A stretch of DNA of 63,317 nt, counting the filler, from Hausera hauseri (lineage: Eukaryota), in assembly GCA_046269625.1 (NCBI GenBank). It is 11 parts of 11 records of this genome, joined end to end, with 100 filler letters (N's around TTAATTAATTAA, not from the genome) between each part and the next. Parts side by side here need not be neighbours in the genome. Positions count along the whole stretch, not along the records: positions 35,606 to 39,943 come from JBJURY010629219.1; positions 40,044 to 46,563 come from JBJURY010091654.1; 9 more parts are not named here. One strand, written 5' to 3'. Positions 8,214 through 63,317 of the stretch are shown in pieces (position 1 is the first letter of the stretch; every line of letters begins with the position of its first letter). The translations under genes were made by a program, and so were the position numbers. The notes beneath the pieces are model-generated. The model was given only the letters and a program-made list of their open reading frames with translations. It was not told where the DNA came from and searched no databases.

Positions 8214-11159
8214 TCACTGCATGATAAAGCGATTTTTCATTCGTTGCCGTATACAGCTGGCGCTCAATTGATCGGATGATCGTCTAATAAATATAGTCTT
8301 TGATTGTTCTCCGTCTCCTTCTTCATAGACACGGCGATAATCACCGTGGTTTATTTCCTTCTGGGCCAACTTAACTACTTTGGTACGCATTTTCCGTCCA
8401 CCTTCGTCAGTTAAAATGCTATAACATTTTGGACGTAGAAATATCCATTCTCGATACTGAATTCGACCTTCACTTTCATCCTTGAAGCAGTCGATTTTAT
8501 TTTTGATGGCGCCAATATACAGTGGATAATTTTGTGGGTAATTGGACGTGTCAAGTAATCCATCTGCCATCATTTGCCGCAGTAGTTGTCCGCGAATGAT
8601 GTTTTTCAGTTCGAAGAAAAAACTGTCTGTGTCACGGTCAATTATATTGATCTTGCCGCCGAATATTTGTCAGTAACGTGCCAAATCGCGATACTGCAGC
8701 TCAAATATCCGCAACTTGCTCAGATCCAATACCACTTGTCCGATATAACTTGGCCGGTCCAGAACGACTTCATCTATGTTTAACAGCACTTCAACCAATC
8801 CATCGGCAATGTGCATTAACCGTCGAAACTGCGTCTTACTCGTGTACGTAACTAGCCGTTTTCGCAATTTAATAGGCGCGCATTGAGCAACTTTTTCCGA
8901 TTCTCTACTGTATTTCTGTACAGACAATTGTTTTTCAGCTTGTAGTAGTCCTTTTCGAATTTTGTACAGGCTGCAGCTCGTTTCTCCGAATTACCATCGA
9001 TGTACGCCTTTAACATGGGAGCCTGACCGAATCGTATTGCACGATGCAGCTGTGTGACGTGTACACCGTGCTGCATGTAGAACTGTAGCACATGCCAATG
9101 GACCACGTAATTCAGCTTTAGAGACACGTCCAGTTTCACATACTGAAGCATGTAATCAAACATGTTTCTACAGCCGAGTTCTGTTCAACACCTCTGTGCT
9201 TTCCGATATTCATCCTCTTTGATACCTGTCCATCGCGGCGGTAATTCCTCTTCTGTCCGAAGTCGCTCATACGATGTTGCAAAGTCATATGGGAATATGC
9301 TTTGCTTCGTGCAATATGTGTAGGGAACTGCGTTGGGCTTATCGGCACATCCGACAAGGCATTTACCAGCTTCGCCAATGATTCGTTGAGAAATTGCAAT
9401 GAATCAAGGAAGCGTACCTGGAACCGGTTTATGCGTGCTGACAGCAACAGGTACTTCTCCACTGTTGTTGTGATTATGGACAGTTCTTAGTGCGTAAATC
9501 CGTTTATGGTCCATTTCAGTATATGGTGACAATCATAACCTCGGAAATTATAAAAGATCACCGGTAGGAATGGCCGCATACGCCTTGTTAAATTGCATGC
9601 GTGGCATGCTGCTCCAAAATCTCGACCAATGAAATGATCGTGGTCGGGTAGGAGCCGTCCCTGTGCATCAAAAAGGACTAATTTGTTGCAGAGGTAACGT
9701 TCATCGGTCGAAGCAAACAACAGCGGTTCATACTCATCTTTCCAAATCAATGGTTTATTGGAATTATTGTGATACCACGGCTCGATTTTCGTTTCCAATA
9801 TCGTTTGCAAACGCTGCAGGAAATCACGTACACAGTTCCAGCCGTGAAAGTCGTAATACTGCGGCTGAACGACCACTTTTGTTGGGACAGCCAACAAACC
9901 AACGGCTATTAGAAGGCGTTTGGAACGTGCCGTCGTAGAATTGCCTTAATATCGGCATATACCACATATGCCGGACTGTCTGTTTTCGACCAGTCACTGA
10001 ATCGGAGCTCCTTTTTAAGGGACATGACGTATGTGGCTGTTCCCGTTGAATTACGCTTGCACAACATCACATGTTTCTCCCATGTTGTTTTTGACCTGAA
10101 ACCATGCGGATATAGAGGACACCATTTACATAGCATACGCTTTTGGACAAATGGATGGCGATCCATGTTCAACAGTCGGTCCAAATTGGTCACTGCCATG
10201 TAATGGAACTTTCCTTTTTGCTCAAGCAGTAACAAATATATTGGGCGTCCACTTGCGTTCCGACTTCGATAAATTATGTCCTCATGGGGGTTCTTATATA
10301 TCTCTTCGTTTGCCTGTATTTCTATTATTGTATTGTACCGCAACACATTTATTGCCAATGTTGGATTACACCGTTTAAAAGCCGGAATGGTTTTTAGTTT
10401 CATCGGCATCCAGCAATCGTCGAAATCCAATTTGGAAAAATACTGCCGATACTAATTTGGACGATTTGTATTATGTCTGTCCACTTGGTCATATTTTATT
10501 ACCGCTAGAATACTGTAAAGAAAACAGTATTTGCCGTCAATATTTTTTATATTCACTACTGCATGTGAATTCTGCAGAGCTGTAGGTGACGGTATGAATA
10601 ATTTCCCGAACAAGTAAGTTATGTCATTCGACTTTGTTACGATAAAGCCCAGAGTAACAATTTTTATAATTCGCCACGCACTACCTTTTTCGGTTTAGTT
10701 GGCGATTTTCTCATCGAGCTTCTCACCTACCGCTGCGATAAAATCCTCCGAATATGGTACAGCTCGATGTGACAGGTACCATTGTTTCCTGTCGCCCTGT
10801 ACATTTTCAAATTCTGCAAGTGTGTAATATTTCATTTTGCAGTTGTGCTGTTTGAATTTCTCCACTTCTGTTTCCAACCGGCTGCGCACACTGGACGGAA
10901 CATGTCTCAGCTGTATTGTTGTTGTCCCCGACATGTTTACTTTCACGTCCACGTACGATTTCTTTAGATCGTACTTGATAGTAATGAAAGTTTCCTGCTG
11001 TTGCATCTGCTCCTGCCGCTGCTGCTGCTGTTGTTCGGTACCGTTTCGGATGTATTCGTCAAGACTTGTGGTTGCTTGACGTTTCCTGCTTGTTGAGGGG
11101 ATATAGATGTTTATTGTAGCCATCACTATTTCCTTTTTGGACCACTGAAACTGGTTCAA
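8214..11159 (-). mobile_element. Decayed protein-primed family-B DNA polymerase (pPolB) of a Maverick/Polinton or related endogenous virus
   Basis: Ordered minus-strand motifs: VVNIKNIDGKYCFLYSILA, C2H2-like CPLYPHGF..HVMLC, VVYADIKAIL (ExoI), DHDHFIG..GAACHACNL, PVIFYNFRGYDCHHI (ExoII), FLDSLQFL..SLAKLV, KLKNNCLY, DTDSFF (~8618-8635), DTSNY, FKDE, LRPKCYS. Many frameshifts. Confidence 0.88.
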
Positions 11160-34270: not shown

Positions 34271-35932
34271 TTCTTGAAAAATAAGCTGTAATAGCAAAAT
34301 TGAAATTGTAAAATTTCTAACAATACAAACAAAATAAAATTTAAAAATCTAACAAAAAAAACCAGAAGCAATAACTTACCTAATAATGTTTTTTGAGTAA
34401 GGTATTACTATGCAAATTAACTAAAATGGCGGATTGCAAACGCTTCTATTTATTAGGAAAAAGAATGAATTAGTGCTAATAAATGTAAGCACACACGCAC
34501 TAAGGCACACACACACCCAAACCAGGCTAAATAAGAAATGATATTTTCATTTGAAGTATTCTACCGCCTATATATGGTCGTTATCATAAATGTTAACATA
34601 TTAGTCGTCGTCATTTCATAATATATGCCAGCTTACATACTAACGAATTTATTTTAAATACAAATACACGCATATTAGCACACGCTCAAATATCTTTGCT
34701 TTTATATCCACTCATTTACGTGACACACTCGACAAATACATACTAACATGAATTAACAACTAGCTAAGATAAACATGGCTAATCACAGTGTATGAAGTGA
34801 TGAGGACTTGTAAAATTTGATTGAAAATGCCTTGACAGAGAACTCTAACACAAAGGAATTGCATGCTGATTATGGAATACATACATTCTAAATGGCAGTA
34901 GTTTAATAGGTCATAAACAATGTAGAAACCAGTAGTGAAATTTAGCATACTTCGAGGTGATTGAGTAATTACTTAGTTTCATCCACAGACTGACACATGA
35001 ATAAAGAAATATTGCAAAGTTTTTGTATTAATATTTCTAGTAATTTTGATGGTAGAAAGCTTTCTTTACTCTTGTTTGTGTGTTCAAACAGTTAAGAAAC
35101 ATTGTGAAGTAATTTATATTGTCATAAATATTTTTGTTGTTGTAACTGTAATGTCAAGAAAAATTAACTATTTTATTTTTTCTTATGCTAATAATAGAAA
35201 ATAATTGCGAATAATTTTTAATGGTAAAATTCAAGTAATTTGAAACAAATAGACCGTTATTTCTTTGTTCATTCAATTCACCTTATTGTGTCACAATAAC
35301 TGATATGAATATCTTAATTGATCAGTGTTTTCGTACAAGTTTCACGTTCAGAATAATTTAATTATGTTACTAATATTGAACGTATGTTCATTAGTATATA
35401 TGATTGCTAAATTCATGTTAAATTGTTCACCATTGTTTTTAATTTAATTTGATTATAATTATGACTAAATAAAATTTAATTTTCTGATAGGAAGAATAAA
35501 CTCTGNNNNNNNNNNNNNNNNNNNNNNNNNNNNNNNNNNNNNNNNNNNNTTAATTAATTAANNNNNNNNNNNNNNNNNNNNNNNNNNNNNNNNNNNNNNN
35601 NNNNNTAAACAATGCATTGCAGTAGTCATAAAACCAGTCACATGTTTATACAACATAAACGCAAAAAAATAATCAATAATAGGCTTTGAAACAAAACTTC
35701 ACAATCAATGACTTTTATCATTTAATTAAAATTTATCACTAAACTCCCTTTTATCCATTGCATATTTTCAGTGTTTTACTTGAATATTAACTTGATTAAC
35801 GTGAACATGTCATGAGAATAATCATAAATATTTTCTAAAATGACAATAAAAATTATCATATGACAACCGTTACGAAAAAAGGTCATAGTACAATGAATAT
35901 AAATTTGAATAACTTTGAACGACTATCATAAT

Positions 35933-38920
35933 ATGAAACTTATAAGTTTGTGGATATCGATTTTTATACTTTACAAGTTAACATATTATATTTCGGCCCA
36001 GAAGTGCGGATATTCATCATGCGATGTGGGAAAACCGGATAAACTAAACGTTCACATAATACCGCATACCCATGACGATGTGGGCTGGTTGAAAACAGTC
36101 GATCAATATTACTATGGTTACAGAGATTACATTCAGTCAGCCGGAATTCAGTATGTAATTGACACCGTAATCAATGCTCTTGAAGAAAATCCTGATCGAA
36201 AATTCAGTTATGTTGAAATGGCATATTTCTACAGATGGTGGCAGGAACAAACGGATGCCATGAGAAACAGAGTAAAGTCGCTCGTTAATCAGGGCAGACT
36301 ACAATTTCTTCTTGGTGGCTGGTGTATGAACGACGAAGCTACCACGCATTATACGGCAATAATTGATCAATTAACATTGGGTCTTGATTTTCTCAACAAA
36401 ACCTTTGGTGAATGCGGTCGACCGTTAGTTTCGTGGCAAATCGATCCATTCGGCCATTCAATAGAACAAGTAAATATCTTTTATGAAATTGGATTTGATA
36501 GTCTTACGTTTATGCGTCTCGATTATCGAGATAAGGATCAAAGAAAAGCTGAAAAACGATTGGAATTTTTGCAGAATTCGTCATTTATAGGTGGCCCTAA
36601 AAAGCAATTATTCACAAGTATTCTTTATGATTCGTACTGTCCACCCGGTGGATTTTGTTTTGACTCGAAATGTCAAGATGATCCCATAATGGATGATTCT
36701 ACTCTTCATGACTATAACGTAAAGAAACGAGTTGATGATTTCGCCAATTATGTTTTGGAGCAAGGAAAATACTACACCACAAATCATGTTTTAGTTCCAA
36801 TGGGCTGTGATTTTCAGTTTGAAAATGCATTCCACAACTTCAAAAATTTGGATAAACTAATCTACTATACGAATAAATTAAGAAACGATATAAACGTTGT
36901 CTATTCCACACCAGCTTGTTACACATTGGCTGTCAATCAAGCAAAACGCAGTTATACACAGAAAGGGGATGACTTTTTCCCCTACGCTAGTTCTTCCCAC
37001 AGTTATTGGACCGGATACTTTACAAGTCGGCCTGCACTTAAAGGATATGTTCGGCAGTCGAACAGCTTTTATCAAACTTGCAAGCAGATGTATACTCTTA
37101 GCAAAATCAACGATTGGAAGTTAAACCAAAACATAAGTTTTATGGGCATGAAAATGGGCGTTTTACAGCATCATGATGCAGTTTCTGGCACGGAAAAACA
37201 GGAGGTGGCATATGATTATGCTCAGCGCTTAAGTGAAGGGTCCGCTGCTTGTATGGATGTAGTGAGCGCAAGTATGAATAAACTGCTCAATATTAAACCA
37301 GAAAATAGATTAACGTTTGCTACTTGTAATCTACTAAACATCAGCGAATGTGCTCAAACAGATAATATGAAGTACAATATGCCTCTGTTGTTAACGCTTT
37401 ACAACTCACTGGGAAAATCGGTGTCTCATTGGAATAGGTTACCAGTAACAGTGGTCAAAGGTGATCGGTATTCGGTGGTTGAAATGCCAACAAATGCACT
37501 GCCAATCCAACTCATACCAATAACTGACCGAACAAAATCTATTCCAGAAAGGTCCAAACAAGCAACTGCGAATTACGAACTGGTATTTAATACTGACATT
37601 CCACCAATGGGATATTCGATTCTGAAAATTATACGAATGAGAAGTAAAACACTTTCTAACGATTTTTCAAAACTATCAAAACTATCCAATAAAGATTCAC
37701 GAATAATTAAAAATCAAAACCTTCAGTTGAATTATACGAATGGCTATTTGGTATCCGTGGAAAATCTGCAGTCTAAAGTCCAAATTTCTGTAACACAAAA
37801 ATTGGCTTATTATTTCCCAATGCAAGACAATGGGCAATCGTCTGGAGCATATATCTTTCGGCCCACAACCAACGCATCGGTACCATTTACTCAATCGATT
37901 GAAGTGTCAGTTTTAGAGGGAAATTTAGTTACAGAAGTTTATCAGAAATTTAGTGACTGGGCGACTCTCGTTACTAGGCTGTACAATAATAGTAAATATA
38001 TTGAAAATGAGTGGACTGTTGGACCCCTTCCAATTTCGGATAAATATGGAAAAGAAGTCGTCATAGATTATGTAACAAATTTAGACACGATGAACTTAAT
38101 GTTTACAGATTCTAATGGTCGACAAGTTGTTGGCCGAATAATTGATAGACGCTTTGACTATAAGTTCCAACAAACCGAGCCAGTTGCGGGCAATTACTAC
38201 CCTTTGACAAGCGATGCCTTACTCATCAATAGCAGTAAAACGTCTAAAGATGCACCTGCACTAATTGTCCATACTGATAGAGCACAAGGAGTTGGTTCTT
38301 ATGTCAATGGTTTGTTAGAAATTATGGTGCACAGACGCACTTTGAGAGATGATGTGTTTGGTGTTGGTGAACCTCTGAACGAAAAAGGATCGGATGGAAA
38401 TGGAATCATAGTTCGTGGAAAACACTGGATGACCGTTGATATTATTGAGAATATACTGGAAACTAGAAGAATGAAAAGCTTGAAAATATTCAGTAAACCT
38501 TTGTCCTTGTTTACCACTAATATTACGAATTCACTTGAAAGCATTTTATCTCTTCGAAACAAGAATTCTGTTTTAAAATCGTCGTTACCTGATAACGTCC
38601 ATATTATGTCTTTGGAGAACCACTTTACCACGACAGGCAATATTGATTACCAGATTTTACGAATAGAAGATCTGCGAACAATCGATAATGGAAAATTGGT
38701 TGAAATTGACTTTAACAAGCTTTTTACAAATTACACTATTACCGTTTTAGACGAATTGAATTTATCTGCAAATCAGTATTTGAAGAATGTCACAAGATTG
38801 GTGTGGAATTCTGTTAAATCCGAACCGAACTATTCGAGTGAACAAATAAATGACGGAAAATTGTCTTTGTCTGCAGGTCAAATTAGAACTTTCAAAATAC
38901 TTATCGATTCAGTCAACTAA
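35933..38920 (+). CDS. MAN2B1: Lysosomal alpha-mannosidase (GH38, MAN2B1-like), intronless
   Basis: Signal peptide MKLISLWISIFILY..; HTHDDVGWLKTVDQYY, GGWCMNDEA, nucleophile motif WQIDPFGHS, QHHDAVSGTEKQ, SGAYIFRP, EPVAGNYYP, HRR..DD.FGVGEPLNE. AATAAA at ~38972. Confidence 0.95.
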   Translation: MKLISLWISIFILYKLTYYISAQKCGYSSCDVGKPDKLNVHIIPHTHDDVGWLKTVDQYYYGYRDYIQSAGIQYVIDTVINALEENPDRKFSYVEMAYFYRWWQEQTDAMRNRVKSLVNQGRLQFLLGGWCMNDEATTHYTAIIDQLTLGLDFLNKTFGECGRPLVSWQIDPFGHSIEQVNIFYEIGFDSLTFMRLDYRDKDQRKAEKRLEFLQNSSFIGGPKKQLFTSILYDSYCPPGGFCFDSKCQDDPIMDDSTLHDYNVKKRVDDFANYVLEQGKYYTTNHVLVPMGCDFQFENAFHNFKNLDKLIYYTNKLRNDINVVYSTPACYTLAVNQAKRSYTQKGDDFFPYASSSHSYWTGYFTSRPALKGYVRQSNSFYQTCKQMYTLSKINDWKLNQNISFMGMKMGVLQHHDAVSGTEKQEVAYDYAQRLSEGSAACMDVVSASMNKLLNIKPENRLTFATCNLLNISECAQTDNMKYNMPLLLTLYNSLGKSVSHWNRLPVTVVKGDRYSVVEMPTNALPIQLIPITDRTKSIPERSKQATANYELVFNTDIPPMGYSILKIIRMRSKTLSNDFSKLSKLSNKDSRIIKNQNLQLNYTNGYLVSVENLQSKVQISVTQKLAYYFPMQDNGQSSGAYIFRPTTNASVPFTQSIEVSVLEGNLVTEVYQKFSDWATLVTRLYNNSKYIENEWTVGPLPISDKYGKEVVIDYVTNLDTMNLMFTDSNGRQVVGRIIDRRFDYKFQQTEPVAGNYYPLTSDALLINSSKTSKDAPALIVHTDRAQGVGSYVNGLLEIMVHRRTLRDDVFGVGEPLNEKGSDGNGIIVRGKHWMTVDIIENILETRRMKSLKIFSKPLSLFTTNITNSLESILSLRNKNSVLKSSLPDNVHIMSLENHFTTTGNIDYQILRIEDLRTIDNGKLVEIDFNKLFTNYTITVLDELNLSANQYLKNVTRLVWNSVKSEPNYSSEQINDGKLSLSAGQIRTFKILIDSVN

Positions 38921-39630: not shown

Positions 39631-40825
39631 AAAAATATATTGAAAACGTCTAGTGACTGCTACTTTTATAAGTAGTACAGTACACTAAAAGGCCGAGACA
39701 AATCGGTCAAAATTAATATTGAAACAGTGACGATCTATTTTATCAGTAGTATAGCTACTGATAAAAATTAAAAAGGAGTTATACTTGACTAGAAACACCC
39801 CCAGATAAATTAGTTAAACACCCCCGGTGAAACTTTTGGTGCCCCCAGATATGTTAGAGAATGCCTACCATAAAAATATCAACACCTACAAAAACATTGA
39901 AAACTCCCACAAAAAATAAATAAAATACCCCCAGAAAGTAAAANNNNNNNNNNNNNNNNNNNNNNNNNNNNNNNNNNNNNNNNNNNNTTAATTAATTAAN
40001 NNNNNNNNNNNNNNNNNNNNNNNNNNNNNNNNNNNNNNNNNNNCAATAGATCCAGACGCTGAAGTATTGAATCAAATGCATAAATTAATCGTATTATTAA
40101 CAGAAATGGCGGAAATTGACGAAGTAGTAGCTAAACGACTAACAGATCGAATACGACTGGTAAAAGAAACCCGGTTACGCTCCGAGAAAATGCAATGCGA
40201 GCTAAACGAATTACAGAGAGAAACAGAAGTTTATAAGAATAAGTATCTTTTTACAGATTCCGAAATAAAGGACAAAACGGAATTTATACAGAGATGGCAA
40301 AGAGACAGAATTGCAGAAATAACTAGTTATCGGGAGAAAGCTTTGATACAACCAGAAGAAATGTGCCGATTAATAACATTGATACAACAAGCGTGCGGAA
40401 ATGGAGAAGGATTTAGAATATCCGTAATAAAAACACTGCAACTGCAGATAAGAGAATTACGTGAAAGAGTTCACGTCGGACATGCAGCGCTAATGAATTA
40501 CGAGTTATCTGACGCAGAAAATGAAGCCCAGTGGGACGAATATCTCCAAGGTCTAACCGAGCAAAATCAAAAAACTCGAATACAAATTTATTAGTCACCT
40601 ACTAATACACACAAGACAAAATTTGACGTGCAAATGCTACTTGATCCCACACTAGCCGAGAAGAAACTAAGCAGTATGTTGAAAATAAACATAAGCGAAG
40701 ATAAGTTAAGGAAATTGATTCCAACAGTGACTAAGTTATCCAGCGAAAACACCTCATACAGCGCCGTGCCGAAGCTCTTAATAAGAGAGTATGCTAAACT
40801 ATTAAAAAATAAACCGGAAGCAGAA

Positions 40826-41251
40826 ATCAAAGTGAAAGTATCGTCCGAAGAAGTGGATGACGAGAAATTCGAATGCACTACCTATACCACCGTTGGAGAC
40901 ATAAAACAGCGGATAATTAATAAGAATGGTAGGGAAGAAGTTAATTATCGACTCTATTTTAGAGGTAGAATACTAGATGAGTTGGAATTCTTAATAGACG
41001 TAGGGATTATACCACTCCAAGCTAATCGAATAATAGCAACAATTACTTGTGAGCAAACCAAAGATAAAGCCATAAGGAAGGCGCATACAAAACAATGTGT
41101 TGGGAAAATTATGGGAATTCAAGACGCCGCAATGCACTTTGAATACTTACAGATGGATGACAACAAACCGCAATACGATAAGAATTTAGTTCCATTAAGC
41201 GAAACTTTACCACCAGTAAAACCGAAACGACCAGTCGGAAGACCAAGAAAA
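40826..41251 (+). CDS. Ubiquitin-like domain (40826-41045) and AT-hook (41225-41251) within the retroelement ORF
   Basis: IKVKV..FEC..YTTVGDIKQRI..EEVNYRLYFRGRILDE..LIDVGI matches the ubiquitin pattern TVxxLKxxI..QRLIFxGxxLxD..LxDYxI; no terminal GG. KRPVGRPRK is an AT-hook-like motif. Confidence 0.78.
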
Positions 41252-41739
41252 ATAAAAGAAATCGAATATAACGCAGACTTGATTAGAGAATTGAGACAAT
41301 TATCGGTGCCGACCCCGAGTTCAGACAACGAAGAATTGGTTGAGCTAATGCGAGACTTAATTAGTATAGTCAATTACACCGGACTTCAAGGCGACATATT
41401 AACCGTGAAAGAAAGACTAATATATAATATAGCCCGGACGATGAAGACTCCGCGATTTAAATTATCTAAAAGTACCCTTTCTGACGAAACAGTAATTGAT
41501 AGAATTATGATAGCTAATACGACGGAAGAATTAAGGAAAGTCTTGATAACCTAGCAGTAAGCACCAACTCGCTCCGAGAAAGCGAATTTGACAAGACAAT
41601 TGGATAAGATAGAAAAGCTGCAAGAAGGGTACCCAAAGAAATAAAATGAGCTAAATTATTCGAAAAAGAGGAAGATGCAAGAGGGACTAACAAACTAGAA
41701 GACATTATGCGAAACATCTCCTTGAACAAGGAAAACGGA

Positions 41740-43530
41740 TCGAATTGGTTAATCAACCTAATGACGATAATGATGTTAGTGAAGCAAATGGGAGCAGTTA
41801 CCTTATACGACTGTGATAAATTCAAGGTAGGTCAAAAATATTCCTTAATGGATTTAGAAACATGGGAAGATGCAAGACCTCACAAGCTTGAGACGATAGA
41901 AAAAGAATATATATATTAACTCAACAATGGGACTTAATTGCAATGGATGCAACGGAATGTATGATACGGAGATTTCGCAGCGTTTTTCATTGTGGTAATA
42001 TGCACGGGCATTCTTCAATTATCAGACCAACCACACCATTAATCCCAATGAATGTGGATAGACAACATTGTTTAGGAGCCCGGCCGACCGGCAAAATGGT
42101 TTGGGATGGCATGGAGTTAGAAGCCCAAAGAAAGGTCATTATAGCTTACAAAGTGGCAATCGGAAAACTAAAAGTGCACACGGGCTATTGTGTCGGAGCC
42201 GAATATGATACGGGAAAAGGAAAAGAAGGAGGAATAGTAGTTGTAGATTTTTACGAAACAGAGTTAAGATCCTTAAAGGCAATGGTTCATTGTGTTACCT
42301 AACTATTTACTGAATATCACATACAAGATGGCGCTTGTACGTTCCGAAGTTCAGTTGTTGTATGGAGTGCAACTTCATTAAAATCAGAGTTGAAATTCAA
42401 TGAGACAACTGGAAAACGCTATACAAATAAATTACACACTAATACGAGATGAAGGGAAGACGTGATAGAACATTCCACACCGACGATATTGATATCGGAC
42501 ACGCATGGGTTGAAGTTTATTAGAAAAGATATGTTAACACGTTGCGATGTAGTAATGTATGCCACAAATTATGAGGCATTTTTCGTAGCAGAAACTGAAA
42601 TTAACATGAAAACGTATGATTTAAAAACGCAAGACATACGGATTGAGGATTAACTTAAAAATTGAGAGGACTATTTCTATTACAAAGGACAAACCGGAAT
42701 AGCAGAGCTATGTCACAAAATGATAACAAATTACTGCAGATTAGATACTGAAGTCATGAGAACCAAATTGGCTTTAATTTATGCCAACACAGAATTGGCA
42801 TCACCAATTATAGCAATGAAAGAAGGCGTTTTGAACGAGTTACTGGTGAAGTACTACTAACTTATAAATGCGAAAAGAAAGACGTGCCGATCAACGTAGA
42901 AGAAAAAAGATGAATGCTGGAATTACCAGTCATCTATGAAAATTTGCCTAGACTAGCGATGCCACTCACTAGAGTATTATTGGCAAACTCAATTGAACCA
43001 ACGATCCTGAAGGAATGCAAAACAAGCCTAGGTGAGCCCATGTTTCGACGTAGCAGTACGGACTGAATAAGCTTACCTAATGGAGGCGTCATCGCAGCCC
43101 CTAGCAAGCTAACTGGAACAAATTTAATTAAAGGATTATTAGAAGAAAAGTTTGGAAATACAGCCAATAAAGGAATTTATAGGCCAAAGGGCATAGAAGC
43201 CTTTAGGCAGTTCCTAGCATTTCCGCGACAGAGAACTTATGAACTGAATCGGGCTATGTCAATGGTCATGGATGACACCCGCTTTGAAGCAAAATGGGAA
43301 TCGTTACTTGGCGCTAACCATTATTAAAGAGTAACTTTTGAAATATTGTATAAGATTTGGGGAAGGTTTCTGATTTTTGGACAAGCCGCATCTGGATTTT
43401 TAGCCATTTACTTTCTAGTCCAGCTAGTTAAGGCTGTAATTTAAGCCATTATCAACGGGTATGGAATATTCACGTTAACAGGATTTTCCTGCAAAATTTT
43501 GAACGCAATTATTACGCCCTTTGGAAAAAT
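41740..43530 (+). pseudogene. Chuvirus-like (class III, gB-type) envelope glycoprotein, decayed
   Basis: Internal signal WLINLMTIMMLVKQMGA then VTLYDC; ECMIRR..FHCGNMHGHSS; GYCVGAEY; GEVLLTYKC..ELPVIYEN..PLTRVL; KGIY..FLAFP; TM block WGRFLIFGQAASGFLAIYFLVQLVKAVI*AIINGYGIFTLTGFSCKILNAI. These match the remembered chuviral G motif series in order. Confidence 0.8.
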
Positions 43531-44184
43531 GCTCAAGGCCTACAAAGAAAATCGATGGAAAAATGATGTAGAACGCCATGTCGGATATTATAATTGTAAA
43601 CGAAGAGGCAGACTCTCGATCCTCACTAAACGCAAAAATAAAAAGACAATAATACGGAAAGGTGATTCAAATGATGACGAGCCTAAGGGAGGAGAAGGGA
43701 GTTCCAGAATGAAGATGCATAAGATGTACTCAGTGATTAACGCCGCATTACCTATCATGCCGCCAACAGCACCAATATATGAAGACTGCGACCGTAAATC
43801 AATCGTATCATGTAAATCCGAAATCTATCAGAATTCCATTAGTTATGAAGACCCTTACGAAAAAACAAAACAATATGGGGTACTACGGAAAATGAATGTT
43901 ATCCACCAAGGACCAACAGAAAAAAGGATACCACGTCACATAGAATCGAAAGCAACGATGTGGGAGAACCCGAAGATGTGTTCGATCTCGAGTTCGCTAC
44001 CCAAAGAACCGCTCATTGACAGTCGCGTTACTGAGATAACGAATAACGACCTGTACCCGAACAGAGAATTAAGTCAATTAAGGCAAGATATTATTTCATC
44101 GCCAGAAATAACGATAAATGGATATAGAGTCTCTACTATAAAACGGTCAAAGATAGTGTCAAATTGCTACGGAACAGTAGCAGA

Positions 44185-45600
44185 AGGGAGACCCTTCGCT
44201 AAAATACATTGAAGATTGGGAAGTATATGCATTAATCGACACCGGATCAGCGAAGACGTTTATAAAATACGAATCGATACCAACCACACTGAGAGAGCAA
44301 TTATGCCCACCACTATCGTCAGACCCTGGAAGCGTAGGAGCATTTGGGCAAGTATCGAAGCCAAAATTTAAATGGACTCCTAACATTTATATGTTGGGCC
44401 AAGCACTTCAACATGAATTTGCGGTGATGGACCAGTTAACAGACGATGTAATACTAGGTTGTGATATATTAAAACAGATACCAGGTATGGCAATCGATGT
44501 GCATAATGGAAAATTAATTGAACTTAAACCAATAAAAGGGCCAAAGGTAATAAAGGAAAGAAAATCAGGTGAAGTATGGATCCCAGTAGATGAAGACATT
44601 TCGCCCAGAACCGAGATGATAATTTTCGCACAGATCCGTCAAGACGAGGATTTACCAGTATACTTCGAGCCTCAAAAGAGTATCGATCCAAACCTTATGT
44701 TTAGTAATATTTTGTGTAGAGTAGTGACGGGACGAATACCTATCAGATTACTGAATAATGCATCAATTTCCGTAAATTTGCACGCTAACACTACTTTAGG
44801 TCACACTTACCGAGTATCAGCAGTGTCAATAGAGGAGAAACCATACAAGTGTGCTGAATTTCCACCTCACGTGGAAACCAAATTTTCTCCTGAAGCATAT
44901 TGCAAGTTCTATGAATTATTATGTAAGTACCGTTCAGTAATCGTACAAAATGAGGAAGATATTGGCAGGGCGAAAACTCTGAGACTAACAATTCCGTTAA
45001 GAAAGAAACCCAGCTCGAATGGCAAAATCGACCAAGAAGAACAGAAAATGCCTAAATGGTAACCACCTCCTCACTCATTGAGACCGGAGATAACCAAAGA
45101 AGTAGAGCGAATGTTAAAGGCCGACATAATTCGACCAAGTTATCGATTATGGTATTCATTTATACTTATGGTTAAAAAGAAAAGAACTACAAAACATCGA
45201 TTTTGTATAGATTATCGGGCACTAAATACGTTGATGATGAAAGATTCATTTCCCTTGCCATCAGGAAAGGAAGCTCTAGATAGACTATCAGGAGCGAAAT
45301 GGTTTACCACTCTCGACTTACAATCGGGATACTGGCAAGTGGAAATTGAACAAGATCGATATAAGACAGCGTTTAAAACACACGATGGAGTATACGAATT
45401 TAACGTTATGCCTTTCGGCATCATCACAGGACCAGCCATTTTTACTAGAATGATGAATAAGATGCTCATGGGACTTGACCATGCTTTCGCGTACTTAGAC
45501 GACGTGATGATAGCATAAGAACAGAGGAAAAACACTTAAAGGATATTGAAAATACACTCATGCGATTGGAACAAGCAGGAATGAAACTAAATCCCACAGG
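44185..45600 (+). pseudogene. Retropepsin protease and Ty3/gypsy reverse transcriptase, decayed and 3' truncated
   Basis: RPFAKI/IEDWEVYALIDTGSA (DTG at 44238-44246), VILGCDIL; IIRPS..RFCIDYRALN..DSFPLP..LDLQSGYWQV..KTAF..MPFG..AYLDDV. Confidence 0.93.
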
Positions 45601-46663
45601 ACACAACAAAAGGCCGTTGAAATGGAAAAAGGATTTCTTAAAAAATAAAGCAATTTAAAAATAAAAATGCATAATGATCTGAAAGCTCCGGTTGGCGTAT
45701 TACTACCAGATATGATGTGAAGGGGCGATGGAAAACATTTCAATCGTGTTGAAGAAATTCTTAACATTGGAGTTATGGACTGAAAAGTAGAGAAACTTGT
45801 TATTTACATTAGAAAAATTCTTGATATTGGTATCATGAGCAGAAAGTAGAAAAACTCGTTACTCTCGTTAGAAAAAATTTTAAAATTGATAGTAATGAGC
45901 TGAAGAACTCCGTTAGTGATTTGCTAGCAGATATTATCTACAAAGACATGGAAAAGTTTTTATTTTTTACATTTATATGTTATAAAAATCAGGATGAGCC
46001 TGAGTTACATTAACCCACATGCAGTCATTTAAAATGCAGAAATTGTGTTAAGTATGTATGTTATAATGATGCATATTTTGGCTTTAAAAGAGACATCATG
46101 CTCTTAAATCCTTCTTCACATTCAACTCATTCAGTTGAGGTCTATTTAAAGTGGAACTGCAACGCTTTGGTCTGAATTCCTCCTTTTTGTAACTTCACAA
46201 GCCCTTCTTCACCCCTTTCCTGAGTTGTGTCAGCGCAGAAACATAGAAAACTTAGAAAAAAATAGAAAAACTGAACAAGCTGGAAAAATATGATGCCAGC
46301 AGAATATAAAGATATCTTTGCAGCACTGGTAAACACGAAATTAAACCTTTGTGCACTCCTACAGTCTCCACTTACACAACAAAATGTATTTAACAGCCCT
46401 TTAAGGCATGTGTAGTGGTTGTCATACACAGATACTTTGTAAAATCAATTTTTGTAATCATAATATTAAAAAATAATGCTTTTTTGAACCATTTATTCCA
46501 TAACTGAAAATCAAAATGACCATGCCTGGTTATTTACTACCCATACAATAACATATAGCTAATNNNNNNNNNNNNNNNNNNNNNNNNNNNNNNNNNNNNN
46601 NNNNNNNTTAATTAATTAANNNNNNNNNNNNNNNNNNNNNNNNNNNNNNNNNNNNNNNNNNNN

Positions 46664-48680
46664 GGTTTAGAACGTATCGACTATGGACTAGAATTTAGAA
46701 TAGTAGCTCTTCCTGTTAAACTTATGTTCGAAGTGACTTATAGAGAGAACCTCAACCTAAGCTTATCAATTTTAGAATTTGAACAAACTCCAACATAGGT
46801 AGAGAAGGATGAACACCATCAGTCGTATAGACTAATCTAAGATGGTCGTAGCATAAGAATCATAGCAATAAATTGTGGCAGAGGAGATGATGGATATGGA
46901 ATACCTATCGAAATATCTATTAGAGGAAGTAATGGGACTGAATTATACTCTACCATTATAAACCCTCGGAAACATGTCCAGGAATCGTATACAGAAGTGA
47001 CCGGTTAAAGAAAAGAACAACTCATAAATGGAAAAGATATCCAGCAAGTCCGTTATAAATTAGACCATTGTCTTTACGGTTGTGTGTTAGCAGGCTATAA
47101 TGTACGACAAGAAATCGAGCTATTGGGAATATCCGATGCAAATATTGCCGGACTTAGGGAAATAGCTACTCACCCAATGGTCCAAGAACGAATGGAGAGG
47201 ACCGTACAAGGAAGAAATCCACCAACCGCCCCAGAAACCTTCTTCAAGCTGATAATCGAGTCGATGAACAATGAATCAGGCAAAATTCCAAGACTTCAAA
47301 CAGCTAGCCAACGTTCCAAATATTTACAGGAAATTTACAAGTCATTAAAATGGGAACATAAATGGACTCCTAAAAACCCTACGTATAATTTACGTAGTTC
47401 CCTAAAACTCGAAACAATAAATACCGAATATAGAAAGAATATTAAACCCTACTCTCCGGTCAGAACCGTCCAGCCGACAGACAAGCATAGTTTTATGATC
47501 ACAGTACAAGAACCTATCGAAAAACAAGAAAAAAAGTCGACTTACAAATGATAGAAAAGAAAAACAAAACACTAGATAGAACATCAAAGTCTCCAGAGAA
47601 ACAAAAAAGGGAACCGAGGCCGGAATTTATGATTAAGAAACCGAAATTAGAAGAAAAGTCCCAGTCCAGGAAGACACTATCTATCTATAACTATTTATTT
47701 AAGAAGAAGAGAGAAGACGAGGAACAAAAAGTTGAGAACCAACAAAACAGGCCAAGTTCCTCACAGAAGGTAAAATCTGTAGAAAAGAAAATCAGAAATC
47801 CCATAATAACCGAAGTCAATGCCCTTTGTATTTAAGAAAATCAAGAGAATGTACATTGTAAAACAACCCAAGACTCACCCAGAATGCTGATAACTACAGA
47901 ATATTTTCGTAAGAAAATGATCAAAGAAGCCATGTTTTGCGTCAAAATTGCCCCAGCCAGAGAGGTTTTTGAGAATACCTATGTTTGGGAAAATCCTAAG
48001 CTAGGAAATTATCTCACCTCAGTTTTCCGTTCTAAGAGGACAAAAAAATAATAGTTCCAGTAGATAAGCAAATTCGGATTCTACTAAAGAAACAATACCA
48101 AAAATATCGATTAGAAGGAAAATTTTCCGATTTAGATCGAGACCTTATGGCAGATTGGACATTAATTCGGGTAAACTGTGACCCACGAAAAAGTTCCATT
48201 AACCCTAAACAGAAGGTAATTCATGGATACCTATATTAGGATGTAGATGGTCTTGTGTTCGAACCCATTGAATTAACTATTCAAGTCGACTTAGATAGAG
48301 ACGATTGGGACAAAGAAGATAATGAATGCCCTGTGTGCGATAACAGTTTGAAGCAAGGCTGTCGTCCTGGATAACAAGATTTGCCGTCATAAATACTGTC
48401 GAAACTGTCTGGAGAAGTGGACAATCGACAATGGGAAGACAACATGTCTAGTGTGTCGGGCGGAAGCCACTGAATTGAAATAATACTCCGACGGAAGCTA
48501 CACTCGAGTTGTCTGTATTAAACCCTACCATAGTTATGATTTGGAAACGAACCCCCCAAGAAGCCAAAACTAACCGGATTCCCAAACTGACCTACGAGAG
48601 AGGATGAAACGATTAAAACAACCAAGAACATTAGGCGCCACCTCCTCTGACGCAATAGGCTCCTTCGAGGATGCCGCTCA
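46664..48680 (+). mobile_element. 3' internal region of an LTR retrotransposon encoding a REX4/ISG20-like DEDDh exonuclease fold (~46856-47350) and a C3HC4 RING finger (~48327-48465), decayed
   Basis: Frame from 46664 reads RIIAINCGRG..IEISIRGSNGTELYSTIINPRKHVQESYTEVTG*RKEQLING..VLAGYNVRQEIELLGI..LREIATHP. RING reads CPVC..(frameshift)..CRHKYCRNCLEKW..TTCLVCR. Confidence 0.72.
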
Positions 48681-54049: not shown

Positions 54050-56440
54050 CCCCTGCTTATCTTCTTCAATAATACACACCCCCATACTTTTTATGCGCCA
54101 TACACGGATACCCCTTATCACCTTCAAGCACATCTATCCTCTATCCTCAACTCGTCAGACTTTTATCTATCATATCATGGTTCTATACTTAATGTACCTA
54201 TAGGCCATGTGGCGACTATCGACAATTAAACAATCTAACTATTACAGATGCCTGTCCACTACCACTCATTAAATATATTCTTAATAGCCTCAACAACATC
54301 AATACTTATTCTACCATTGATCTGCACAAGGCCTACCATCAAATCCCTGTTGCCCCTAATGACATTCCAAAAACTGCTGTCATCTCACCATTTGGCCTTT
54401 ACGAATACATCTTCATGCCTTTCGGCCTACGTAGCGCATCTCAGACCTTTCAGCGCCACATTGACACCTTTCTGTCTGGTCTTGATTTTGCTCACCCATA
54501 CATATATGACATAGTCGCTTCCAGCTCCATCAAACAACATCATGAGCACCTTAGAATTATCTTCCACAGATTGCATCAAAGCAACCTGAAAATTAATTTC
54601 GCCAAATGCAATTTCTTCCAGAAACGCGTCAACTTCTTAGGCCACATAATTACTCCCGAAGGGCATTCGCACCAGCCTGATCGCTTACAACAATTAAAAA
54701 TGTGACGTTACCAACTACTACTACCGATGAGGAGCTTTTAGGGACATTGCATTTCGTACACAAATACGTGCCAAATTGATTCGAGCTAACGGCACATTTC
54801 GCACACCTTTCATCCGGGAAGAAAAGACAATTAAACCGTTGAACTCCCGATCTACTAAATCAATTTGATCGCCTTCGTGAAGGTCTAAAATCCGTTGAAA
54901 TCTTGACTTTTCCAAAACCAAACGCGGAACTGATATTAACTACCGATGCCTCAACCATAGCCACTGGTGTAATATTACACCAAATATACAGTGGTGTTGA
55001 CGAGCCATTGGAATTCTATTCCCGAAAGCTCACGCAACCGAAAAGTCGATACTCAACATTCGATCGTGAACTCCTGGCCGTAGTTCTAGCGGTAAAGCAT
55101 TTCAAGCATTTGCTTCTATCACATCAATTTACCATCCAAACCGACCACAAGCATCTACTTTATATCATGACGTTATAACAGCCACCACCCAGACAAGAAC
55201 GACAGATATCATACCTGTTGACATTTAGCCTTTCTATGAAATACATTTCCGAAACCGAAAATTTGGTAGCAGACTTTCTGTCGCGGTCGGTCAACTCAAT
55301 TACAGCTCAGACAATTTCTTCATCTGAAATCCTGAGAATTAATCATCCATCGTCTGATATTCTCCAAGTTTTTAAATCTGTTGAATTCATTGATGGCATC
55401 GCCTATGACACTTCCAACTCGACCAACAAGAAAATCATTTTTGCTCTATCGTTACAAAAGACAGCTTTCACTCATTTTTACTCTTTTCATCATCCGGGTT
55501 CAAAAGGCACCTTTCGTCTATTGCAACGCCACGTTATATGGCCAACTATGCGTACCGATGTACAAATCTGGGTCAAGGGATGTGTAGCATGTCAGAAATA
55601 CGAAATCCACAAGCACCTGAAACCACCACTTTACCACTTCCCTTGCACTTCTAGTTTTGATACCCTGCATTTGGATCTTATGGGTCCTCTACCTACTGAC
55701 AATGGCTACCAATATATCTTATCAATAATGGATCGTGCTTCCCGCTGGCCTGAAGCTGTTTTGCTTCGATCAACCAACACTGACTCAGTAGCAGATGCAT
55801 TTATCAAAATATGGGTCAGCCGTTTTGGCTCACCATGTCACATCATAACAGACCAGGGTACGCAATTTGAAGCTGATCTTTTTAAATCTCTAGTAAAGCA
55901 CTTGGGGATAGTCCATTTCCATATAACGCCGTACCATCCCCAAGCAAATGGTGTTTTTGACAGATTTCACCGCACCATAAAGATTTCCTTAAAAATCCTG
56001 GCAAACAACAATCATAATTAGACATGACTTCTTCCTCTTGTTCTACTCGGCTGGCGCAACAAGCCATCCACTACCACAGGTTGTTCCCCGGCTGAAACTC
56101 TCTTTGGGACACCAATTTGTGCCCTTTTGAGCTCTCTAATTTCGATGAAAGTCCGTCAGATAAAGTCATTCGTGCGGCACAGTCCCACTTTGTAGAGGTA
56201 AACTCAAACGTCTTTTGCCGTCTTATAAATAAAGACAAATCATATATTCCAGAGGACTTATACTCAGCCAAGTTTGTATGGCTGAAAAATCCTTCACCGT
56301 CTGGTCTTCGGCCTCAATACGTTGGCCATTACAAACTACTAAACCTTTCTTTGCACACCGCAACTATTTTACGCAAAGACAAACCTCAAAATGTACACAT
56401 CTCTAATCTTAAGCCAGCATTCTTCGTTGACGATCCTTAG
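54050..56440 (+). mobile_element. Decayed Ty3/gypsy pol (RT - RNase H - integrase)
   Basis: YRPCGDYRQLN, IDLHKAYHQIP..KTAVISPFGLYEY.MPFGL; LTTDAS..FYSRKL..YSTFDRELLA..TDHK; H..HHPG..CVACQ; HLDLMGPLP..DRASRWPEA..TDQGTQFE..YHPQANG; GPY-like YVGHY. Confidence 0.93.
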
Positions 56441-59906: not shown

Positions 59907-62900
59907 CTAGATTTGAGATATCGATGAGATACCAGTAATTTGAATAGATTCAATGAATGTCGGATCATTTTTAACGATTCCAGTTTCGGTAAATGACAAT
60001 TCGGATAATAAAGTGATCGAATTCGGGTTTTTATCATATTGTGCATTGTCAGATACATTTATTTCGGAAACCGATATAGGCTTATTGTCATGTTGACTCT
60101 TTGGAACCATTTCTTTTACAGATTCTAAATTCTCTGTGGCCTCAGTTTGCTCTGGTGATTTTATAGTTGTAACAGTTTCAAATTCACTACTAGCAACGTG
60201 CTCCGATGAAACTCCTTTCTGATCTTCACTTTCTTTTTGTATGAAGCTAGTAGAAAAACATTTCCTTTCGTCTTTACCCAAAACACTAAACTTGAAGGAC
60301 TTCACAGACTTGTTAAAACTCGACGAATCGATATCCGTTGTCAGCTCTAAATTATCCGTATTTTTATAATCATTTTTATAACCCAATAAAAATAAACTGC
60401 GTTCCGGTAGCCTTGTCCTATCATCATAACTTTCTGAATTTGTCGTGATTCTAACCTGAATAACTCCGGATATAACTGAATCCATTTCGGATGTTGAATG
60501 TGTTTCAATAGGTTTAACTATTTCACCAGAACGTTTCTTAACTATTCTATCTGAAATTGAATCAGACTTTGGTTGTGATGTCAACATATCCGAGTCTTCT
60601 TTGATTATTCTTAACCCGAGACTATCATAATTGCTCAGAAAATCAACTACTTTCCCAAGTTCCAGATCTACATATTTTTCTGACGTGAAAAGTGGACGTG
60701 ATGAATTACTTGATGATTTGCCATATTTCAATTCATTATTAGTCGGAATTAATAAGGCTTGTGCTGTTGTTTCATTTTTGAAAGTTGATTTGCTATCAAT
60801 ATCAATTTCATCTTCAATATACTCAATATGAGGGTGATAATCTTCAGTGACCACATGACTCTGGATGTTAATATTAATAATCGTTTTAGAAGAATCTGTT
60901 TCTCTTTTAGGCACTTTTTCATAAGCTTCATTTGCATCAGTATTTCTCTCATGACCTTTAACTGCAGAGGACATTAAATTTAATTGAGGATCATCGAATT
61001 TTAACACCTTAAGACTATCAATTTTTAAAACATCGGAATCATCTGAATTAATATTCTGATATAAAGTTTGAGCTTCTAATTCAACTTGAACAGACGTATC
61101 AGGTTTGGTGTTTAACACATTTTTATCTTCATGTTCAGCTTTTTGGCCAGCCTGAGAAACTACATGCATTCCCAAATTCAAATCATCAAATACCTTGGCA
61201 GTTTCTGCAAGTTTAACAAAATTTTCCGATTTAAGAAGCACTTTAATCCCAGTACTGGAAATACTGCTTTCATTATTTAAAGAACTAGCTTTTGAATGTT
61301 CTGATTTGTCTAAAACCTCAATCAAGTAATTTCCTACATTGTTCAACCGTTTACTATCCGACGACCAACTATCTTCATCGCATTCATCATCATAAACCCC
61401 AGTTGCTTTGGATAAAAGTCTTTTACCCATTTTATTACGGTTGCATTTATCATTTGAACCTAGGTTAATGTAATTTTTCTTAGATTTACAAGTTACACAA
61501 TCGCAATTGCGATGTGAATCACTTAACATGCCGCTTTTGTCAATTTTAAAATCATATTTACTGAATCGTCCGTCATCTAATTCACGGGGATCTACAGACT
61601 TGCTGTTTTTGCCCATTCCTTTTTTAATACCACCTTGACTTGTAACGGATTTCGGAAAACTTAATGTTAAACGACCTTCGTCCGAATCACGGAATGATGA
61701 AACTACGGTACTCTCAGGCTTTTCCACATTTTTACTTCTGACATGTAGACTCTTATCAGACGGAGGACCAAGCGTTGAAGCAGGGCTAGGACTTCTATAT
61801 GTTTTTCCTATAGCACCTTTCATAAAATCATCATACTCATCTTCAGTTTGTTGGTAGTGAGCCACTGTAGAACCTGCATATCTTGATCCTAATTTAACAT
61901 TCGAATCTGATGACTTAGAAACTCTATCAACATTATGAACCGCAGTTGACGGACTTGGATATCTTTGAGACTTTACCTTTGCGTTTATCATAGAATCTTT
62001 AGACCTATCTTCAGTTTGTTGGTACTTAGCTAATGCCAAAGTTGAACCACTAGGTTTATTAAGACCACCACTAGAATCAAACTTCGAATCGTCCATTTTT
62101 GACCTTCTGTCAAATTGACGACTTGGGCTTTTTTGAGAAATCTTCTTTGTGACTCCAATTAAATCGTTTGATTTATCTTCTGTTTGATATTTATACAATG
62201 CAGAACCAGTCTGTTTATTCTGAGGTACAACAATTGATGGACTTGGACTTCGTTGGGACTTTTCTCTATTGTCTCTTATTACATCTTTAGACTTGTTTTC
62301 AATTTGCTGATAATTAGGCATCATATGCTTTTCATGACTAAGTTTGTGGAAAGTATGTGATGAACTTGAGATTCTTTGAGATACTTCGTCAAGGCCCTTC
62401 TTTGCATCTTTAGATCTATTTTCAGTTTGTTGATATTGAGGCATCATAGGACTCGTACGACTAGGTTGATGAACGCCAGTAGATGGACTTGAATTTCGTT
62501 GAGATTTTTCTCTATTGGCCCTTACTACATCTTTAGACTTGTTTTCAATTTGCTGATAATTAGGCATCATATGCTTTTCATGACTAAGTTTGTGGAAGCT
62601 ATGTGATGAACTTGAGATTCTTTGTGATACTTCATCAAGGCCTTTCTTTGCATCTTTAGGTCTGTCTTCAGTTTTCTGATAATTAGGTAACTTAGAACCT
62701 GTACGACTAGCCGGGCGAACGCCATTAGATGGACTTGGACTTCGCTGAGATTTTTCTGTAATGCCGCTTACTATATCTTTAGACTTCTTTTCAGTTTGCT
62801 GATAATTAGGTATCATATGCTTTTCATGACTAAGTTTGTGAAAGCTATGTGATGAACTTGAAATTCTTTGAGATGCTTCGTCAAGGCCCTTCTTTGCATC

Positions 62901-63317
62901 TTTAGGTCTATCTTCAGTTTGCTGATATTTGAGTAACTTAGAACCCGAGCGACTAGGCGGGCGAACAACAATAGATGGACTTGGACTTCGTTGAGATTTC
63001 TCTTTAGGGCTCTTCATGACATCATTAAATTCATCTTCAACATGCTGATATTTAGGCAATACAGAAGTAGCACGACTTGGTCGACGAATGTTAATTGATG
63101 AAATTGAACTTCTTAGAGATTTTTCTTTAGAGTTTTTCATATCTTTAGGTATATCTTCGGATTGTTGATATTTAGGAACTACAGAACTCGTACGTGTAGG
63201 ATGACGAACGCCAGTTGATGGACTCGGACTTCTTTGAGATTTTTCCTTAATGCCTCCCATACCATCTTTAAGATTATCATCAATTTGTTGATACTTTTGC
63301 GACGCCAAACTTACATG
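59907..63317 (-). CDS. Large Ser/Lys-rich tandem-repeat protein of unknown function, 5' incomplete
   Basis: 3.4-kb stop-free frame, open to the window end. About 41-aa repeats starting (K/N)YQQ, with SQRSPSPS motifs. Confidence 0.8.
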   Translation of the reverse strand, partial: HVSLASQKYQQIDDNLKDGMGGIKEKSQRSPSPSTGVRHPTRTSSVVPKYQQSEDIPKDMKNSKEKSLRSSISSINIRRPSRATSVLPKYQHVEDEFNDVMKSPKEKSQRSPSPSIVVRPPSRSGSKLLKYQQTEDRPKDAKKGLDEASQRISSSSHSFHKLSHEKHMIPNYQQTEKKSKDIVSGITEKSQRSPSPSNGVRPASRTGSKLPNYQKTEDRPKDAKKGLDEVSQRISSSSHSFHKLSHEKHMMPNYQQIENKSKDVVRANREKSQRNSSPSTGVHQPSRTSPMMPQYQQTENRSKDAKKGLDEVSQRISSSSHTFHKLSHEKHMMPNYQQIENKSKDVIRDNREKSQRSPSPSIVVPQNKQTGSALYKYQTEDKSNDLIGVTKKISQKSPSRQFDRRSKMDDSKFDSSGGLNKPSGSTLALAKYQQTEDRSKDSMINAKVKSQRYPSPSTAVHNVDRVSKSSDSNVKLGSRYAGSTVAHYQQTEDEYDDFMKGAIGKTYRSPSPASTLGPPSDKSLHVRSKNVEKPESTVVSSFRDSDEGRLTLSFPKSVTSQGGIKKGMGKNSKSVDPRELDDGRFSKYDFKIDKSGMLSDSHRNCDCVTCKSKKNYINLGSNDKCNRNKMGKRLLSKATGVYDDECDEDSWSSDSKRLNNVGNYLIEVLDKSEHSKASSLNNESSISSTGIKVLLKSENFVKLAETAKVFDDLNLGMHVVSQAGQKAEHEDKNVLNTKPDTSVQVELEAQTLYQNINSDDSDVLKIDSLKVLKFDDPQLNLMSSAVKGHERNTDANEAYEKVPKRETDSSKTIININIQSHVVTEDYHPHIEYIEDEIDIDSKSTFKNETTAQALLIPTNNELKYGKSSSNSSRPLFTSEKYVDLELGKVVDFLSNYDSLGLRIIKEDSDMLTSQPKSDSISDRIVKKRSGEIVKPIETHSTSEMDSVISGVIQVRITTNSESYDDRTRLPERSLFLLGYKNDYKNTDNLELTTDIDSSSFNKSVKSFKFSVLGKDERKCFSTSFIQKESEDQKGVSSEHVASSEFETVTTIKSPEQTEATENLESVKEMVPKSQHDNKPISVSEINVSDNAQYDKNPNSITLLSELSFTETGIVKNDPTFIESIQITGISSISQI

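Follow-up and report, generated by a model that had tools for sequence, protein, structure and literature searches.

In the window analysed here, a stretch of 63,317 nucleotides (filler included) from the Hausera hauseri assembly GCA_046269625.1, the contig at 40044-46563 (JBJURY010091654.1) carries a retroelement in which a viral-type envelope (env) precedes protease and reverse transcriptase (RT). It is very probably what decay and truncation have left of one copy of a multi-copy, Burro-like (gag-env-pol) Ty3/gypsy-type retrotransposon, the active ancestors of which likely made one polyprotein. The window joins 11 unrelated contigs of 4-9 kb each, with N spacers between them, and neither a shared locus nor a shared organism can be assumed across contigs. 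The contig of the element already begins within coding sequence. Its features, including those from a Pfam domain scan of 40046-45640, are as follows (ORF, open reading frame; pLDDT, predicted local distance difference test).

40046..40594, + strand: open stretch of the accessory region, probably helical, running off the contig start (ORF list, translation; no Pfam match).
40634..41044, + strand: helix and ubiquitin-like module, ubiquitin-like core at about 40832-41008 (Pfam, PDB matches, alignment to relatives).
41228..41248, + strand: GRPR motif, which we take to be AT-hook-like (motif also before the signal in relatives P0003, P0007, P0008 and P0151).
41749..41799, + strand: hydrophobic signal directly ahead of the conserved YDC with which the ectodomain opens; likely internal (hydropathy 1.54; tblastn to the signal region of six relatives).
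41800..43357, + strand: class III (gB/chuvirus-type) fusion ectodomain with two frame shifts and several stops (PF24664, structure model, Foldseek).
43358..43525, + strand: membrane anchor, with its peak at 43370-43453, plus another hydrophobic stretch that is weaker (translation, hydropathy).
43532..44185, + strand: stop-free linker in the envelope frame, without a domain (stop counts per frame; no Pfam match).
44186..44500, + strand: retroviral-type aspartic protease, DTG at 44238-44246 (PF00077, E 2.9e-4; Foldseek, Ddi1 protease-like, 9e-4; proteases of relatives).
44540..44830, + strand: dUTPase-like beta domain, the protease-RT spacer (model pLDDT 79.3; in Foldseek, dUTPases appear from rank 3 with E about 1e-3).
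45066..45600, + strand: Ty3/gypsy-type RT, broken after YLDD and ending before RNase H (PF00078, E 1.7e-21; tblastn).
45640..46563, no strand assigned: non-element flank (summed contig depth, in the thousands before, is down to 7.9 at 45712-45929; no direct repeat listed).

We used the C-terminal half of the envelope plus the linker as the query in a profile-free HMMER search of 1.84 billion representatives, which gave 206 relatives. Among the best 150 of these, a downstream protease motif stood in the same protein in 10 of the 12 best envelope matches and in 2 of the 138 others, the latter two being unverified motif matches. Env and protease were found in one stop-free protein in 12 relatives. 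In four of them Pfam recorded env, protease, RT, RNase H and integrase in a single stop-free protein (P0001, 2627 amino acids; P0008, 2855; P0151, 4844; P0154, 3003), and these same four show the RT-RNase H-integrase order where the present copy ends within RT. Pfam also gave env, protease and RT in P0010 and P0287, and Gag or zinc knuckles followed by env and then protease in P0007, P0009 and P0012. The element is collinear with the relatives from the signal through RT (tblastn). Two to four protease motifs follow the anchor in 6 of the 12 relatives, which would fit self-processing without demonstrating it. A word-index search of longer proteins with the same query passed none of 3,617 candidates.

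Other copies of the element were found in the one public run listed as containing it (X1); no RNA run was among those listed, and the result has no bearing on expression. Its 13,617 contig pieces cover the element continuously from end to end, are mostly 90-95% alike and show a sharp drop in depth after about 45.7 kb; summed contig depth was not taken as copy number. At the linker/protease junction, where 8 pieces were listed, five bridged the break with at least 31 letters on each side, and four of these five keep one frame. The frame shared by envelope and Pol in Burro-like elements is broken in the present copy and kept in the 12 relatives and in 4 of the 5 listed bridging pieces. The stop-free proteins of the relatives and the in-frame pieces therefore support one polyprotein with env ahead of protease and RT, the arrangement that a preliminary description of this DNA had put forward.

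The envelope was identified by both sequence and fold. Each half scored above the Pfam cut-off for PF24664 Monjiviricetes_fusion (E 8.1e-12 and 4.7e-23), and a structure model of the first 317 residues (pLDDT 81.9) was compared by Foldseek with viral models and with solved structures. Chu-like and xinmo-like glycoproteins came top among the former (E 1.8e-16; template modelling (TM) score up to 0.76) and herpesvirus gB was matched among the latter (E 1.2e-6; TM about 0.45). The chuvirus-like glycoprotein first recognised by translation is confirmed, from these matches and the predicted fold, as a gB/chuvirus-type class III fusion protein.

What had been read at the junction with Pol was borne out by three-frame translation. 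The membrane block (43358-43525) shares its frame with a stop-to-stop ORF (43445-44212) that has RPFAKIH at its C-terminus, and an in-frame stop at 43442-43444 within the block, absent from the preliminary description, can be added. The linker (43532-44209) is free of stops over 226 codons in the envelope frame; the two remaining frames contain 14 and 21. The DTG (44238-44246) and the RT (YLDD near 45495) then follow in a different frame, after a single shift. An aspartic protease followed by an RT with YxDD (here DTG and YLDD; PF00077 and PF00078) is the arrangement of Ty3/gypsy elements. The dUTPase-like fold between them had no sequence-level match in Pfam or in the PDB sequence search, and it is not specific to Burro because other gypsy Pols share the spacer.

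The frame change just before DTG invites a reading with the same gene order but separate frames, in which env would be translated from a start of its own or from a spliced message, and a programmed frame shift where the linker ends would give access to Pol. An ATG lies about 14 codons before the signal, and Chary and Hayashi (2026, PMC13524379), in the available part of their paper, describe three ORFs and permit gaps between ENV and POL; the terms 'polyprotein', 'fused', 'single ORF' and 'frameshift' are absent from its main text, as far as that part extends. We nevertheless consider separate frames quite improbable. Comparison with ten relatives places the break at 44.21 kb inside the first strand of the protease, not ahead of it, and therefore decay fits better than a programmed shift; the bridging pieces of other copies mostly lack the break, and env and protease share a stop-free protein in the 12 relatives.

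The copy is dead and decayed. Three-frame translation and tblastn located five frame breaks (near 41.64, 41.90, 42.85, 44.21 and 45.51 kb), and 12 in-frame stops are present across the coding pieces. An assembly mosaic of several high-copy copies, in which the breaks and the truncation would be artefacts and the order right, is suggested by the fragmented assembly and the highly repetitive family. It is very improbable, as the stops and breaks are spread along the whole copy like ordinary decay, and the 3' flank holds a piece of low copy number, with 3 differences over 320 bases.

To place the Pol region, we aligned protease, spacer and RT with 67 rows, of which the eight best comprised the six env-first proteins along with a pair of Pol proteins from their clade (199-216 bits, against at most 190). 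In a tree of 37 rows, for which 36 of the 67 aligned rows were chosen by coverage and score, the element was sister to these eight proteins with a Shimodaira-Hasegawa-like approximate likelihood ratio test (SH-aLRT) value of 94. Envelope and Pol thus appear to indicate the same relatives, with modest tree support. A nested insertion or chance neighbourhood, with a chuvirus-derived or BEL/Pao env fragment beside an unrelated gypsy pol, has in its favour that chuvirus-like glycoproteins commonly occur on their own (of the 150 listed matches, 46 are 600-720 amino acids long without a protease motif), but this least probable of the readings is largely refuted: the multi-copy cover in X1 is continuous across the junction, the linker is stop-free, envelope and Pol share one set of relatives, the repeat scan listed no direct repeat or target-site mark on the contig (40044-46563), and the stop-free relatives and in-frame bridging pieces speak against it as well.

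Upstream of the envelope, the module at 40634-41044 matched Pfam ubiquitin with E 5.4e-5 and 23.3 bits, below the 25.4 cut-off, and its PDB matches were almost all ubiquitin, ISG15 or MDY2; the ubiquitin-like motif that lies upstream of the envelope in Burro is therefore present here at a score below the cut-off. Among ten N-termini of relatives, it aligned with residues 242-373 of P0154 (E 2e-8), and it aligned weakly (E 0.004) with residues 421-550 of P0007, the stretch after three CCHC knuckles. An ESM Atlas search with 40598-41551 gave no usable match. Pfam found no capsid or zinc knuckle anywhere in 40046-45640, the interval between envelope and protease included, which agrees with the absence of both from that interval in the preliminary description. 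The 'X' placed ahead of env in the same description is no unknown substitute for gag, as its match is the accessory module found behind a relative's zinc knuckles. For this reason the Gag of the element is probably located beyond the contig start.

The YDC motif behind the signal is conserved in 10 relatives. The earlier observation that the frame stays coding-like upstream holds for about 33 open codons in the signal's own frame; beyond these there is a stop (41647-41649), and the coding-like text further upstream is in a neighbouring frame. The signal is likely internal, which the stretch alone cannot prove given the ATG within those 33 codons.

Several points weigh against a Burro-like element with one ancestral polyprotein. 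The identity to the nearest relatives is just 24-34%, and the copy, with its five breaks and 12 stops, has no uninterrupted ORF. Gag, RNase H, integrase and long terminal repeats (LTRs) were all absent from the contig (40044-46563), and Pfam gave no match to a BCL2-like domain directly before the envelope (40046-41946). In the 37-row tree the branch of the element is unstarred and long, and the six env-first Pol rows had been added by us, though found via the envelope; a tree of RT only (71 rows by 152 columns) leaves the element unresolved on a long branch. Only 8 junction pieces from X1 were listed, with 852 others unlisted, and X1 may be the source sample. A gapped row at the junction has a small part of the summed depth (962 of 14,867, from 13 contigs), and loose ends gather at that position; there may be a subfamily sharing the junction break. 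Finally, a second hydrophobic stretch is above the hydropathy threshold in P0001 and P0012, so that the topology may not be single-pass.

Under the polyprotein reading, and from general knowledge of membrane polyproteins, the following series of events may be proposed. The ancestral product would have run from Gag through the ubiquitin-like module, internal signal, gB-type envelope, anchor, linker, protease and dUTPase-like domain to RT, with RNase H and integrase after it as in the relatives. The internal signal would thread the envelope into the endoplasmic reticulum, and a signal peptidase cut just before YDC would free the N-terminus of the ectodomain while the Gag part stayed on the cytosolic side. 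The anchor would halt transfer, so that Pol reached the cytosol while still joined to the tail of the envelope, from which the element's own protease would release it. Particles may then have assembled at, and budded through, the envelope-rich membrane, and they may have infected new cells by class III fusion.

Some of the relatives have features of their own. P0007, P0008 and P0151 carry several protease motifs per polyprotein (P0151 has six, and integrase precedes two of these) and also ankyrin and C2H2 domains, with membrane-anchored tails after integrase. P0001 (HBK71150.1) is an animal-type, env-carrying retrotransposon polyprotein filed under a 'Flavobacteriaceae bacterium' metagenome-assembled genome, most likely through bin contamination; a metagenome scan with P0001 for its DNA context confirmed none of 20 stretches.

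The remaining contigs of the window hold a variety of sequences. The next contig (46664-51533) is as strongly A-skewed as the element. Its ORFs are decayed and include one RING finger (at about 48340-48470; Pfam E 1.6e-4), and it may be an accessory portion of some related element. Decayed Ty3/gypsy copies at 5138-7021 (- strand; zinc knuckle and RT) and 54196-56090 (+ strand; RT, RNase H and integrase) are both far from the element in the RT tree. At 35909-38920 there is an intron-free lysosomal alpha-mannosidase of 1003 codons. Its best matches are at 57-58%; those from named animals (mollusc, nemertean and annelid) are at 44-47%, none of them close. The contig at 12302-21398 combines a non-LTR-type RT ORF (12511-14424), GC-rich spacer repeats and an 18S gene (20042-21297) with a long GC-rich insert; its composition is unlike that of the other contigs, and the contig set may be mixed. 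By eye, we take this 18S, on a contig separate from that of the element, to have insect-like motifs. Decayed ORFs at 8214-10451 (- strand) have a weak Pfam match to endonuclease VII, and by eye we presume them to be like a fragment of a Polinton/adintovirus-type DNA polymerase. An open frame of at least 1136 codons at 59907-63317 (- strand) contains about ten Ser/Lys-rich repeats of 41 residues (123 nt) and no significant Pfam family.

Compared with known systems, the element is closest in layout to Burro/GYPSM1, a giant Ty3/gypsy of dugesiid planarians in which env stands between gag and pol without a change of frame (Arkhipova and Yushenova 2019, PMC6431247). In the available part of that description, the Burro env matches mononegaviral fusion glycoproteins, a ubiquitin/SUMO-like motif lies upstream, a dUTPase-like motif lies between protease and RT, and the copy number is high, with decayed copies too. 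Judged by this published description, Burro and the element are alike in having env before pol, a ubiquitin-like module upstream, a dUTPase-like spacer and many decayed copies. They differ in that the 5.5 kb of the element yielded no Bcl-2, BIR, MATH or ankyrin domain; a weak Bcl-2 match (Pfam) was seen in relative P0006. In the strict sense Burro is more than 25 kb long, has a planarian host and an RT of the Burro clade, and carries a BCL2-like motif directly before the envelope (PMC6431247). The element is Burro-like rather than Burro because no BCL2 domain was found before its envelope.

The available part of Chary and Hayashi (2026, PMC13524379) extends the comparison. GAG-ENV-POL elements with a gB-type ENV are reported there from Platyhelminthes, Nematoda and Bryozoa; the ones of the HSV (herpes simplex virus)/gB kind are named 'ancient errantiviruses', nine flatworm elements are tabulated, and insects, as far as that part goes, were surveyed solely for GAG-POL-ENV. 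The element shares with this set a gB-type envelope ahead of pol, and by eye only its domain I-II resembles six Schmidtea 'C1a' rows of the supplement, including the motifs TP..L.S and C...(Y)..TNY. It differs in that the copy is not intact and would fail their filter. Among nematodes, non-canonical endogenous retroviruses of metavirus type with a flipped env/pol order are also reported (Sacco et al. 2022, J Gen Virol 103:1739, as cited in PMC13524379). The novelty implied in the preliminary description is thus overtaken, as the layout has been published for Burro (PMC6431247) and for three phyla (PMC13524379).

A chuviral glycoprotein can also occur in another context, with env after pol in BEL/Pao elements, and relative P0028 has DUF5641 followed by env (Pfam). 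Dezordi et al. reportedly described in 2020 chuviral-glycoprotein BEL/Pao elements of mosquitoes. The element and the mosquito elements share the glycoprotein family PF24664, whereas the env of the element precedes protease and its Pol relatives carry Ty3/gypsy-type domain sets. A BEL/Pao element with a chuviral glycoprotein was ruled out on these two grounds.

A deep-branching env-in-polyprotein lineage whose host is an animal other than a flatworm, nematode or bryozoan is rather unlikely; if such a host were true, the gag-env-pol design would extend to a new phylum. A copy that is both dead and truncated offers little grip on the threading, cutting and packaging of such a polyprotein, for which the intact planarian elements are better. 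About a dozen relatives free of stops came out of the search, and several of them carry two to four protease motifs. With the layout already published, what is new is only the divergent family (24-34% identity to its nearest relatives), which the element adds to the small published group that carries a viral fusogen inside a Gag-Pol polyprotein.

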